DNA of 63,471 bases, the filler included, from Anaerolineae bacterium (GTDB taxonomy: Bacteria > Chloroflexota > Anaerolineae > Epilineales > Epilineaceae), in assembly GCA_029262755.1 (NCBI GenBank). It is 5 parts of 5 records of this genome, joined end to end, with 100 filler letters (N's around TTAATTAATTAA, not from the genome) between each part and the next. Parts side by side here need not be neighbours in the genome. Positions count along the whole stretch, not along the records: positions 13,577 to 26,273 come from JAJCYU010000193.1; 4 more parts are not named here. One strand, written 5' to 3'. The position numbers were made by a program. Positions 16,201-19,200 of the stretch are shown piece after piece (positions within the stretch are counted from its first letter, which is position 1; every line of letters begins with the position of its first letter).

Positions 16201-19200
16201 CCGCCTCCTGCCGGTAGTTCTTGGCCACGGAGATCCCGGCAACGGTCTCTTGGATCTTGGCGTTCACATCCGCGCTGACGCGCGCCGCCTGGCGCGTGAC
16301 CTTGCGCGCGAGAATGCGGAACGCGAAGGCAAACACCAGGATCAAGGGCGCCATGGCCAGCACGAGCAAGGTCAGGCGGCCGGAGATGCCGACGAGCACG
16401 GCGGTGATGATCGCGACCTCGACGACCTGGGCCACGAGATCGGCCACCAACGTTATCGACTGGCCAAAGTCGTTCGTATCCGTCGTGATGCGGCTGATGA
16501 CGCGGCCGCGCGCGATACGGTCGTAGAAGGCCATATCGTGGCCGACGGCCGACTTGAAGGCATCTCGCCGCAGCGCGTAGATCACGTCCCCGATGAGGCG
16601 CGAGGTCGCCCTACGGCGAAGGAAGTTGCCGATCCAAACCAGGATCCATGCGGTGAAGAGGCCCGCGAGAAGCAACCACGGAAGCCGTGGAAGCCCGCCC
16701 GTGACCGGGGGCGCCAGGCGCAGCGCCTCGAGACGCCCAATTCCTGCCGCGAGCATGAGGGGAACGCCGGCCAGGAGAGCAGACACCGTCGCAACGCTGC
16801 CCACGATGAGCGCGACCCGGCCGCGGTACGGCGCGACGTAGCGTCCGACGCGGCGCAACAGGTCACGGTCCCGGTACTGCCGGTCGTAGGACTCGACGTC
16901 CAGGTTGTTGAAAATCATGCGGCACCATCGCCGGAAGCGCCTCCCCAGTGGGCGAAGAGCCGACGGTAGGCCTTGCATGTTGCCAGCAACTCGTCGTGTG
17001 TACCGCTTGCCTCGACGGTGCCGCCCCGAAGGACGACAACGAGGTCGGCCCAGCGGATCTGCGAGAGCCGGTGGGTGATGAGGATCGTCGTGCGTCCCGC
17101 CGCCGCGCGTCCGATCGCGCGCTGGATGCGGTCTTCCGTGGCGCTGTCGATCGCGCTCGTGGAGTCGTCCAAGATCAAGATCCGTGGCTCCGATAACAGC
17201 GCACGCGCGATCGCGAGGCGCTGCCGCTGGCCGCCGGAGAGCGTCACGCCGCGCTCTCCGATTACGGTCTCATAGCCCTCCGGCAGCGCGGCGATAAACT
17301 CATGCGCCTGCGCCTCGCGCGCCGCGGTCTCGATCTCGGCCGGGGTCGCGTCGCTGCGCCCGAAGGCGATGTTGTCCGCAATGGAGCGCGAGAAGAGGAA
17401 GGGGTCCTGCTCGATCACCGCGATCTGCCGGCGAAGGCTGGCGAGATCCCACGCGCGCACATCCACACCGTCCACCAGCACGGCGCCATCGTCAACGTCA
17501 TAGGTTCGGTTGATCAGCCGCGTGAGCGTGGTCTTGCCGCTGCCGGTCTGCCCGACGATCGCCACCGTCTGCCCGGCCGCCACCGAGACGCTCACGTCAC
17601 GCAGGATCGGCTGATCGGGCCGATAGCCGAAGCGCAGGTTCTCGAAGCGAAGCTCCCCGTTCATGGGAGCCGCATATCCGCCCCGATTCTCATCGAGGGC
17701 CGTCTCGCGGTTCACCAGCTCCAAGATCCTGCGGGCGCTGGCCATGCCGAGCGAGACCTGCGCGTAGGAGAAGAGCGAAACGAAGGTCGGGAATCCGAAG
17801 AGCCCGAGCAGGCCCATGTACGCGACGACATCGCCGACCTCCAACGCGCTTCCCGGCGCGGCATAGAGCCAGCTCGCATGGGCGAATCCTGCGCTCGAGG
17901 CGAGCCCGAGGAGCAGCAATGGCAGGAAGCGCGCCTCGCGCTCGCCTTGCTCCTTGTAGGCATCGCGGTACGCCGCGGCACGGACGGCGAAGCGCTCCGT
18001 CTCGCGATCCTCCTGGGCGGCGCTCTTGACCACCTCGACGCCTTCGATCGCCTCGGCGAGGTGCGCGTTGAGTTCGCCGAAGGAGCCACGCACCGCGCGC
18101 GTCACGGGCGCGAGGCTCTGCAGGTAGTGCCGCAGCGCGAAGCCGTAGGCGACGATGAAACTGAGCGGCACGACGACCAGACGCGGATCGATGCGCCAGG
18201 AGAAGAAAACCGGGGCGACGAGAAAAAAGGCCGAACCGATGACGAGGTTGAGGCCGGGGTTGAACATCAAGTTCAGCTCGCGCACGTCGTTGGTGGCGCG
18301 CGCCATCGTGTCTCCCACCGGCTGGCGACCGTGAAAGGTCATCGATTTTCCGAGCAGGCTGCCGTAGAGCTCGTCGCGTACGTCGCGCTCCATACGCTGG
18401 CCGAAGACCTCGCTGCCGGCGTTGCGGGCCAACTGCAGTCCAGCGCGCACCAACTGCGACCAAAAGATCAGCCACGCGATGTCCGCCACGGCGCCCAAAT
18501 CCACGATTCCGTTCGCGGCGACGCCCTCTCCTACGGTATCGAAGGCCCGCCCGACCAACACGGGCACCATCCCTGCCAACGCCGCATTGCCCGCGGCACC
18601 GAGCAGGACAACGGGGATCAGCCAGCCTTGGCGCAGCACATGAGACAGGACCCAGCGACCGGCGCTTGCGCGGTTGGTACGGTAGGGCCGGTCGAGGACG
18701 AATTCAGCGTGGGTCAAGGCCAATATCCAATGGGGGGAGCGCGAGAACGGCAACCCTACATGCCTCCCTCAGGAGCGCCAATCCTACGTGAGGTGCCGGG
18801 GAACGCTTCGGGCGAAGGACCCCGTTGCACAAACGCACGAAGGGGCCGCGGGTTCACGGCCCCTTCGTGCGATCTAGGCGGGGATGCATGGGAGTCGAAC
18901 CCACCAGCGCCGGCTAACGCCACCGCTCACCGATTTTGAAGACCGGGGAGGCCACCGGGCCCCATCCATCCCCTCGCGATTCTTCGATTCAGCCGCAACA
19001 GTAGCAGGGCCACGCAGTCATCAATCACCGATTTTGAAGACCGGGGAGGCCACCGGGCCCCATCCATCCCCTCGCGATGTACTTTCCGGCTCCCTCGAAT
19101 ACTTCAAAGCGACCGGGTGCGTTTCATCAACTACCGAGCCGCCGCCGCATCGGCCAACAGCCGATCGACCGTGCTATCCAACTCCGAGGCTTCACGATAG

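Follow-up and report, generated by a model that had tools for sequence, protein, structure and literature searches.

The window, a stretch of 63,471 nucleotides made up of parts of five contigs of an Anaerolineae genome joined by runs of N, carries a gene for tRNA-Sec on its minus strand. The gene, which the earlier note had placed at this very position, is recovered by ARAGORN and matches the full length of the RF01852 model (1-91) over 18880-18973(-), scoring 70.3 bits where the gathering threshold is 47; within the window there is no other tRNA and no other Rfam match. The sequence directly 3' of the gene forms a perfect inverted repeat, whose position alone suggests a terminator-like hairpin. 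On the other side, 98 nt upstream of the original copy (18927-18980), lies a perfect 54-nt duplicate of the leader and the first part of the gene, which is a truncated tRNA-Sec fragment. In the Logan contigs of run X1, this 54-mer is a separate piece with a depth of 11.4 versus 4.2-6.6 in its surroundings, and a 104-nt piece spanning 18951-19054 bridges the two copies. The locus is present in a single DNA run, X1, which is possibly the source sample, and stretches left uncovered in runs X2, X3 and X8 are uninformative. A metatranscriptome contig of run X8, at a small share, matches 18875-18973 with one difference; its origin is probably a related organism, and RNA libraries can contain DNA; the match is not counted as expression. 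Across the 25 genomes searched, the source genome counted, 20 contain a tRNA-Sec of at least 64.8 bits.

The neighbouring gene encodes a ResA/TlpA-like thiol-disulfide oxidoreductase, with 104.5 bits to the NCBIfam ResA model NF002854, under its cut-off of 170. It has the Cys form WCVPC, is not a selenoprotein and serves as genomic context only. Judged by coordinates, a thioredoxin-like match adjoins tRNA-Sec at the equivalent position in genomes G001, G003, G008 and G014.

Table 1. Features of the tRNA-Sec locus (positions in the window), the Sec machinery and the predicted selenoprotein genes. C-numbers are contigs of the genome bin, and their coordinates count along each contig; scores are in bits, with cut-offs in brackets.
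Feature	Position	Strand	Sec motif	Basis
tRNA-Sec gene, anticodon TCA, reads UGA	18877..18973	-		ARAGORN, Rfam RF01852
Perfect 15-bp inverted repeat, 8-nt loop, directly 3' of tRNA-Sec	18834..18871	-		repeat search
Perfect 54-nt duplicate, 7-nt leader plus first 47 nt of tRNA-Sec	19025..19078	-		repeat search, 100% identity
ResA/TlpA-like thiol-disulfide oxidoreductase, Cys form, neighbour gene	19131..20102	-		NF002854, translation
SelA	C9:1817-2992	-		507.7 (267.9)
SelB	C156:28024-29886	+		344.5 (242.25)
SelD, one internal TGA	C109:4931-5866	+	SCAGUASK	368.1 (125); read-through product TIGR00476 374.1 (125)
FdhA	C332:1-2232	-	RIUHAS	NF041513 1061.2 (1400), TIGR01553 653.6 (814.2), over TGA
SelW-like Rdx protein	C46		YCSQU	TIGR02174 67.0 (34.2); Pfam Rdx 76.5 (22.6), residues 33-105, over U; NF041051 86.1 (88)
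Thioredoxin lipoprotein	C10:20942-21586	+	WUPTC	PF00085 40.6 (23.5); TIGR01068 38.7 (96.8)
SelL-related Prx-like protein	C30:4106-4726	-	GUMFC	NF040769 129.8 (120), residues 70-230, over U
AhpD-like protein	C122:19335-19922	-	CVYU	TIGR01926 140.3 (81.8)
DUF3179 protein	C150:8485-9582	-	WUPLC	PF11376 289.6 (27), over UxxC
DUF3179 protein	C399:17747-18631	-	FUAPC	PF11376 69.9 (27), over UxxC
Rcas_1661-type DsbG-like lipoprotein	C267:5586-6524	+	LUPYC	NF041057 111.1 (190); Pfam Thioredoxin_4 83.7 (23.2)
DipZ/TlpA-like (TlpA/ResA-like) protein	C210:9853-10860	-	FGUINC	Pfam AhpC-TSA 45.0 (26), over UxxC; NF002854 68.8 (170)
NHL-repeat fusion of a TlpA-like thioredoxin	C330		UxxC	Thioredoxin_8 42.9 (27), over UxxC; NHL 96.6; NF002854 50.4 (170)
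Rhodanese	C306:33685-34299	+	LYCAU	NF041203 89.0 (115); Pfam Rhodanese 67.5 (22.2)
Deiodinase-like protein	C268		UPPS	Pfam T4_deiodinase PF00837 32.8 (27); NF038285 53.0 (250)
Secreted UxxC protein	C221		UxxC	alignment, predicted fold

The genome comes as a metagenomic bin: 428 contigs with 67% GC, at 84% completeness and 0.72% contamination. SelA, SelB and SelD, which had been claimed alongside tRNA-Sec, all exceed their curated cut-offs, and the nearest relatives of SelA carry Anaerolineae or Chloroflexota labels. A heme-copper oxidase is also encoded. No SelU (tRNA 2-selenouridine synthase) was detected, in a bin that is 84% complete. By the established bacterial pathway, SelD, itself apparently a selenoprotein here, would make selenophosphate, and SelA would turn Ser-tRNA-Sec into Sec-tRNA-Sec. 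SelB would then deliver Sec-tRNA-Sec to those UGAs that have a bacterial SECIS, a small hairpin whose loop contains G(G/U), 16-37 nt downstream.

In at least 14 genes, on 14 separate contigs, a UGA followed by a hairpin takes the place of the codon for the family's redox-active Cys; attribution to one organism therefore rests on binning and on the presence of the same families in family-level relatives. The earlier note had counted at least 15 selenoproteins. Fourteen were verified, comprising the 12 it named plus C330 and C221, both from a new TGA scan; a fifteenth was not found. All 12 named genes contain the in-frame TGA and the motif attributed to them, with family scores near the earlier figures, and in 12 of 12 a Pfam or NCBIfam domain runs over the TGA. 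That nearly all are thiol-redox proteins also stands, since 12 of the 14 belong to a family of redox type or show such a motif, the exceptions being FdhA and SelD. That many are secreted is consistent with an N-terminal hydrophobic signal, lipobox-like sequence or anchor segment, identified by inspection, in 7 of 14. The further claim that every gene was cut or missed by the gene calls could be checked only for C221, and there it fits: the database protein has 355 aa and takes in just the 84% that follows the TGA.

Family assignments vary in depth. The FdhA gene is truncated by the contig end, which puts the full-length cut-offs out of reach; its TGA lies in an R-I-U-H context, which we take to be the molybdopterin-ligand position. 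In SelD the TGA falls in the N-terminal G-U-x-x-K loop, and in the SelW-like protein, which scores just under the Campylobacter-type equivalog NF041051, an N-terminal CxxU is found. The AhpD-like protein likewise has CxxU, the SelL-related protein has UxxC, and the thioredoxin has W-U-x-x-C for WCxxC, passing the Pfam model and falling under the cut-off of TIGR01068. The C267 protein has a lipobox-like N-terminus; as previously stated, it falls under the equivalog cut-off of NF041057. It passes the Pfam Thioredoxin_4 model and is best filed as a putative DsbA/DsbG-like Trx_4 selenoprotein related to the NF041057 family. The rhodanese shows the exact L-Y-C-A-U motif and lies under the NF041203 cut-off, again as previously stated, and both TlpA-like proteins (C210 and C330) fall under that of the ResA model. 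C221 had no Pfam or NCBIfam match in family searches; its family is delimited solely by a predicted fold and by an alignment (invariant E, R, U/C-x-x-C and G-P) in which no stretch is conserved well enough for a search for related loci.

TGA codons recur in relatives. Among 20 orthologues fetched from other genera, all 12 copies that carry a stop have TGA in the aligned column, and all 8 without one have Cys there. Of the 19 best rows for the rhodanese, from relatives, 17 retain the TGA; for the thioredoxin, six of seven relatives' copies do, the remaining copy having Cys. For the thioredoxin-NHL fusion, three of four orthologues at 60% identity or more have TGA. DUF3179 orthologues at 54-61% identity all do (4/4), with Cys forms further out and the Sec and Cys columns aligned. 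The 14 family orthologues of the DsbG-like protein divide into 3 with TGA and 11 with Cys, and both Sec and Cys orthologues are seen for the TlpA/ResA-like proteins (C210 and C330). In the C221 family, the TGA is present in 18 of 20 relatives' rows, and among 11 aligned members 10 have TGA and one has Cys at an invariant UxxC. Within the sample searched, this family is confined to the window's own taxonomic family (12 of 16 family genomes versus 0 of 44 outside). The deiodinase-like protein has one weak relative among 24 genomes, with TGA at the same column and a shared GS-x-T-U-PP context.

Hairpins were scored by a SECIS rule covering 16-37 nt after the UGA, a loop of 3-9 nt with G in its first two positions, and an energy of -7.5 kcal/mol or lower, with perfect stems only being scored. 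The published bacterial geometry (loop, stem, G and spacing) is present at 14 of 14 sites, and 10 of 14 reach the energy threshold, led by the C399 DUF3179 gene at -14.7 kcal/mol; on perfect stems, the rhodanese, deiodinase-like (-5.8), C330 and C221 (-4.3) hairpins lie above it. Among controls, 10.8% of 5960 random TGA sites and 10.2% of 3000 Cys codons taken in frame are at -7.5 kcal/mol or lower; Mann-Whitney tests of the selenoprotein hairpins versus each set give p values of 5e-8 and 4e-8, respectively. Folding energy alone, used as a ranking, gave no discrimination in this GC-rich genome. Several loops recur, namely CGUGC three times and GGUCU, AGUU and GUC twice each, a local set and presumably not the E. 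coli fdhF sequence.

Elsewhere in the genome, none of about 146 other TGA sites withstood scrutiny. Of 144 high-scoring sites, ranked by coding score on both flanks, not one has a Pfam domain running over the TGA, and those with Pfam matches are adjacent genes. The codon score also picks antisense frames, self-BLAST of TGA flanks gave mostly noise (repeats and off-frame similarity), and the scan for further genes depends on Pfam. Several individual sites were rejected. Two VWA proteins (C98:2143 and C122:10471) end right after a Cys, the VWA domain stopping before the TGA, and a further VWA gene ends alike at a non-TGA stop. At C122:18704, homologues in relatives cease matching at residue 179, with the TGA at about residue 188. 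The TGA at C308:2548 follows a Y-L-P-x-x-x-R motif found elsewhere at protein C-termini, and the C103 frame has no family match and looks antisense. At C230:810, the TGA is inside a VWA domain, in an insertion missing from all relatives, and may represent either a nonsense mutation or a newly arisen Sec site. As a weaker extra, this gene may be a selenoprotein being born, an 11-residue insertion having brought in the UGA together with its own hairpin.

We put at about 0.9 the probability that the tRNA-Sec gene in the window belongs to a bacterium reading certain UGA codons as selenocysteine, with at least 14 selenoprotein genes; Sec insertion at these UGAs and the functions of the proteins are predictions from sequence. 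Ordinary stops, arising from pseudogenes, split genes, same-frame neighbours or assembly errors, do explain most in-frame TGA pairs in the genome, including the 144 other high-scoring sites without a domain over the TGA and the C98, C122 (two sites), C308 and C103 TGAs, which resemble genuine stops or non-coding frames. For the 14 genes accepted here, however, this explanation is very unlikely: a single domain or conservation on both sides spans the TGA, other genera have the codon in that column with Cys as its sole replacement, and SECIS-type hairpins are enriched after it. An in-frame TGA alone does not tell which residue goes in, and nothing more specific favours a reassigned TGA or general read-through (with Trp, Gly or Cys, for instance). 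Such a code is extremely improbable. TGA is the stop of 486 of 1177 long high-GC3 ORFs (41%), and the code is therefore not reassigned; in addition, in-frame TGAs occur only at catalytic Cys columns, and a dedicated tRNA-Sec is present with SelA, SelB and SelD.

It is also quite unlikely that the true selenoproteins are limited to FdhA, SelD and the best-supported families, with a few weak members (the deiodinase-like protein, the C399 DUF3179 protein and C221) being false. The deiodinase-like protein invites such doubt through its single weak relative, its NF038285 score of 53 versus 250 and its hairpin of -5.8 kcal/mol, but TGA stands in that column of the relative too, within the shared GS-x-T-U-PP. 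C221 has a hairpin of -4.3 kcal/mol and no family match, yet 18 of 20 rows of its own family retain the TGA. Against discarding C399 stand the strongest hairpin of all and a DUF3179 match over the TGA.

Under selenocysteine decoding, the result is mainly an annotation correction that adds new members to known selenoprotein families. At least 14 redox genes, also in relatives, are mis-annotated as fragments, and metabolic and redox readings of these Chloroflexota bins are therefore biased. The selenoprotein set is common to a family of oxidase-bearing Anaerolineae, with about half of it apparently exported. Given export signals on about half of the proteins, an extracytoplasmic role in thiol-disulfide and peroxide chemistry is probable for much of the set. 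More tentatively, and at somewhat less than even odds, the whole Anaerolineae family with a heme-copper oxidase may be a selenoprotein-rich lineage, overlooked because its genes are split by gene callers. Roughly half of its proteins would then be exported or lipid-anchored as an extracytoplasmic selenium-based thiol-redox layer. Among them would be a UxxC family restricted to the lineage, which has an HBP35/DUF1223-like fold and often occurs as tandem copies. Such Chloroflexota may already be covered by a selenoproteome study of groundwater MAGs that PMC13188914 cites as its reference 66.

All four components of the bacterial Sec-decoding system (selA, selB, selC and selD, with a SECIS right after the UGA, as in the E. 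coli formate dehydrogenases) are found here. They differ from that system in being scattered over separate contigs and in having a truncated 5'-half tRNA copy upstream. The pattern agrees with the bacterial consensus model in the relevant passages of PMC13188914, and the understanding of Sec decoding itself is unchanged.

The set shares families and Sec motifs with known prokaryotic selenoproteins, and the earlier note's assignment to known families is borne out by the listing in a 2026 review (PMC13188914). Passages of PMC13188914 and PMC9312934 list SelD, SELENOW-like, AhpD-like TIGR01926 (CxxU), DUF3179 PF11376 (UxxC/T), NF041057 thioredoxin-like (UxxC), rhodanese form 3 NF041203 (CxU) and cd02966/Thioredoxin_8 thiol-disulfide isomerase-like (UxxC) proteins, and name FdhA as the most widespread selenoprotein family. 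Three NCBIfam selenoprotein models are matched here only under their curated cut-offs, and deiodinase-like PF00837, given as UxxC in the PMC13188914 listing, has UPPS (UxxS) here. The NHL-repeat fusion of C330 and the C221 family are absent from the catalogue passages of the two papers. The predicted fold of C221, a thioredoxin-like domain followed by a beta-sandwich, resembles HBP35 of Porphyromonas gingivalis (5y1a) and AGR_C_4864 (2axo), with Foldseek E-values of 4.6e-10 (TM 0.56) and 2.0e-7, respectively; identity to these proteins is only 13-16%, and a predicted Sec takes the place of the pair's first Cys.

Selenoprotein-rich organisms are defined in a passage of PMC5029168 by at least six selenoprotein genes, and 78.3% of them are anaerobes. 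The rich groups named in PMC13188914 are Deltaproteobacteria/Thermodesulfobacteriota, Clostridia and Synergistetes/Synergistota, with records of 39, 57 and 63 genes, and aerobes are said there to retain selenoproteins rarely. The phylum described here is not among the groups named as rich in these passages. Its 14 genes are more than twice the threshold of six and far under the record holders, and they occur together with a heme-copper oxidase, whereas most selenoprotein-rich organisms are anaerobes. The set contains no glycine or proline reductase type; being nearly all thioredoxin-fold or thiol proteins, about half of them apparently exported, it is closer to the marine metagenome sets in the passages of PMC9312934 than to the anaerobe picture.

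Fourteen genes are predicted from sequence to encode selenoproteins in this Anaerolineae genome: twelve that an earlier note had assigned to named families, using the genome's own contig numbering, and two further genes on contigs C330 and C221. The genome is a bin of 428 contigs (5.06 Mb, 66.8% GC, 84.33% complete, 0.72% contamination), of which the window joins C192, C193, C195, C196 and part of C202 with N's. The tRNA-Sec, SelA, SelB and SelD that the note had listed are all present, as found by ARAGORN, Rfam and protein models scoring above their cut-offs. The nearest SelA sequences among one-genome-per-species contigs (56-66% identity) belong to bins labelled Anaerolineae, Anaerolineales, Ardenticatenales, Caldilineaceae and Chloroflexota. 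The genome also encodes a heme-copper oxidase subunit I (532.3 bits); no SelU was found in this 84.33% complete bin.

Selenocysteine machinery, predicted selenoprotein genes and features of the tRNA-Sec locus (bit scores with cut-offs in brackets; locations without a contig name are window positions)
Feature	Location	Strand	Evidence or remark
SelA	C9:1817-2992	(-)	507.7 bits (267.9)
SelB	C156:28024-29886	(+)	344.5 bits (242.25)
SelD	C109:4931-5866	(+)	368.1 bits (125); TIGR00476 374.1 (125); one TGA in frame
SelW-like	C46		Pfam Rdx 76.5 (22.6); TIGR02174 67.0 (34.2)
SelL-related	C30		NF040769 129.8 (120)
AhpD-like	C122		TIGR01926 140.3 (81.8)
DUF3179	C150, C399		Pfam 289.6 and 69.9 (27)
DsbG-like	C267		Thioredoxin_4 83.7 (23.2); NF041057 111.1 (190)
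Thioredoxin lipoprotein	C10		Pfam 40.6 (23.5); TIGR01068 38.7 (96.8)
TlpA-like	C210		AhpC-TSA 45.0 (26)
Rhodanese	C306		Pfam 67.5 (22.2); NF041203 89.0 (115)
Deiodinase-like	C268		Pfam 32.8 (27); NF038285 53.0 (250)
FdhA	C332		NF041513 1061.2 (1400); contig end truncates gene
TlpA-like Thioredoxin_8 domain fused to NHL repeats	C330, TGA at 4385	(-)	F-C-U-V-N-C
Secreted protein	C221:3432-4694, TGA at 4533	(-)	S-T-U-G-I-C; no Pfam or NCBIfam match
tRNA-Sec, anticodon TCA	18877-18973	(-)	ARAGORN; sole tRNA in the whole window
54-nt perfect direct repeat	19025-19078 and 18927-18980		Repeat search; copy 98 nt upstream of tRNA-Sec
Perfect inverted repeat, 15 bp, 8-nt loop	18834-18871		Repeat search; immediately 3' of tRNA-Sec, terminator-like
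ResA/TlpA-like thioredoxin gene, Cys type	19131-20102	(-)	Directly upstream of tRNA-Sec

Translation of the twelve named genes with TGA read as U returns exactly the motifs that had been quoted for them, and in all twelve the family model crosses the TGA. Model searches likewise reproduce the earlier family assignments and scores, including the below-cut-off scores of several narrow NCBIfam equivalog models. Two rival readings of these codons were weighed. Reassignment of TGA as a general rule is excluded by the stops of 1177 long, high-GC3 ORFs: TGA closes 486 of them, TAG 592 and TAA 99. The lead of TAG over the other two stops in these ORFs is unusual for a genome of 67% GC. Pseudogenes or chance same-frame neighbours, which do account for the rejected TGA sites, do not fit the accepted ones: there one domain runs through the TGA, other genera keep the codon, and Cys is the sole residue that replaces it.

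Relatives' genomes were searched with stops read through and counted, which shows whether the TGA is kept. One TGA is present in 17 of the 19 best rows for the rhodanese and in six of seven copies of the thioredoxin lipoprotein. For the C150 type of DUF3179, the four closest orthologues (54-61% identity) carry it and more distant ones do not, while the 14 DsbG-like orthologues in the family divide into three with TGA and 11 without. The deiodinase-like protein has a single, weakly matching relative, in which TGA is present. When 20 fetched orthologues are aligned at the TGA column, all 12 stop-carrying copies have TGA and all eight stop-free copies have Cys; selenoprotein genes are typically recognized by just such a pairing of Sec and Cys forms at a catalytic column.

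A hairpin fitting the published bacterial SECIS model (loop of 3-9 nt, stem of at least 4 bp, G in the first two loop positions, UGA-to-loop distance of 16-37 nt; PMC13188914) follows the TGA in all 14 accepted genes. With perfect stems only, ten reach -7.5 kcal/mol or lower. The corresponding share is 10.8% among 5960 random TGA sites (Mann-Whitney p = 5e-8) and 10.2% among 3000 in-frame Cys codons taken from coding sequence (p = 4e-8). The rhodanese, deiodinase-like, C330 and C221 genes fall short when scored without bulges, and the full fold of C330 has a longer, bulged stem. The loops form a small recurring set: CGUGC (three times), GGUCU, AGUU and GUC (twice each), and CGUGCU, CGUGU, CGUGA, GUU and GGU.

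The two additional genes emerged from a scan of all 73,881 TGA sites with an open frame on either side, in which a codon log-odds score trained on 937 long ORFs was applied to both flanks, complemented by candidate lists based on nearby Cys and on hairpins and by a self-BLAST that sought paralogues carrying Cys in place of the TGA. C330 orthologues keep TGA in three other genomes and have Cys in one. None of 144 other candidate sites has a Pfam domain across the TGA, and five more candidates were rejected one by one. The earlier count of at least 15 selenoproteins thus stands at 14, with no fifteenth found by a scan that rests on Pfam or paralogues and is therefore not exhaustive, being blind to further members without a family; the third gene that had been called new may be such a member.

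The C221 protein has no Pfam or NCBIfam match. A collection of 5.8 billion proteins holds four relatives, including the genome's own 355-aa call, all starting downstream of the TGA (79-84% query coverage). Across 60 relatives' genomes, C221-type genes occur in 12 of 16 within the family and in none of 44 outside it, and 18 of 20 rows carry the TGA. The 11 aligned members share an invariant E, R, U/C-x-x-C and G-P, with TGA in ten and Cys in one. The predicted structure (pLDDT 77.8, pTM 0.74) combines a thioredoxin-like domain with a beta-sandwich; its closest solved structures are HBP35 (5y1a; E 4.6e-10, TM 0.56) and 2axo. Several genomes have tandem pairs of these UxxC genes, and here C221:5072-5920(-) adjoins the C221 selenoprotein gene, one copy having Sec and its neighbour Cys.

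By eye, seven of the 14 proteins have a hydrophobic N-terminal segment: in four of them a lipobox-like G/A-C closes the segment (thioredoxin, C150 DUF3179, DsbG-like and TlpA-like), two resemble signal peptides (deiodinase-like and C221) and one a membrane anchor (rhodanese). Several exported proteins also end in a short hydrophobic motif, (Y/F/M/L)-L-P-(L/A)-(L/V)-x-R/H, with 0-4 residues left before the stop. It is seen in C268, C221, C308 and alignment columns ~340-359 of the C221 family, and looks like a C-terminal sorting or processing signal.

At C230:810, an in-frame TGA lies within the first VWA domain, immediately after the DxSxS motif, in an insertion of ~11 residues that is missing from every orthologue in the relatives. 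The inserted DNA itself folds into a hairpin (-10.6 kcal/mol) 16 nt after the TGA, and the site may be the result of a nonsense mutation or a Sec site of very recent origin. Secreted VWA-domain genes are much expanded in the family (15-47 matches per genome versus 0-2 in the order's other families), and one lies inside the window at 21118-23412(-).

The Rfam tRNA-Sec model matches the window gene at full length (18880-18973(-), 70.3 bits; gathering score 47), and matches of at least 64.8 bits occur in 20 of 25 genomes (this one, 15 others of the family and nine of the order). The 54-nt repeat comprises a 7-nt leader and nt 1-47, the 5' end, of tRNA-Sec. In the independent Logan contigs of a DNA sequencing run that may be from the source sample, the 54-mer is a separate piece at ~2x the depth of its surroundings and a 104-nt piece joins both copies, so the duplication is present in the reads; it could be either a local duplication or a recombination relic. 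By coordinates, four relatives' genomes (G001, G003, G008 and G014) also have a Trx-like match 70-160 nt upstream of tRNA-Sec.

According to a 2026 review, selenoprotein families in prokaryotes number more than 110; its table lists those found here (PMC13188914; cf. PMC9312934), and record gene counts are 39, 57 and 63 (PMC13188914, PMC9312934). "Selenoprotein-rich" denotes a genome with at least six such genes; Deltaproteobacteria, Clostridia and Synergistetes are the groups singled out as rich, and anaerobes make up 78.3% of rich organisms (PMC5029168). For the whole phylum Chloroflexi, three selenoproteins in three families were reported in 2006 (PMC1794560). Full-text searches, as judged from titles and abstract starts only, listed no paper on selenoprotein-rich Chloroflexota; the supplements of PMC5029168 and a groundwater-MAG study that the review cites may already hold such cases. 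Because the families are already known and the lineage is not highlighted for them in this literature, the finding is a correct re-annotation that adds new members to known families.
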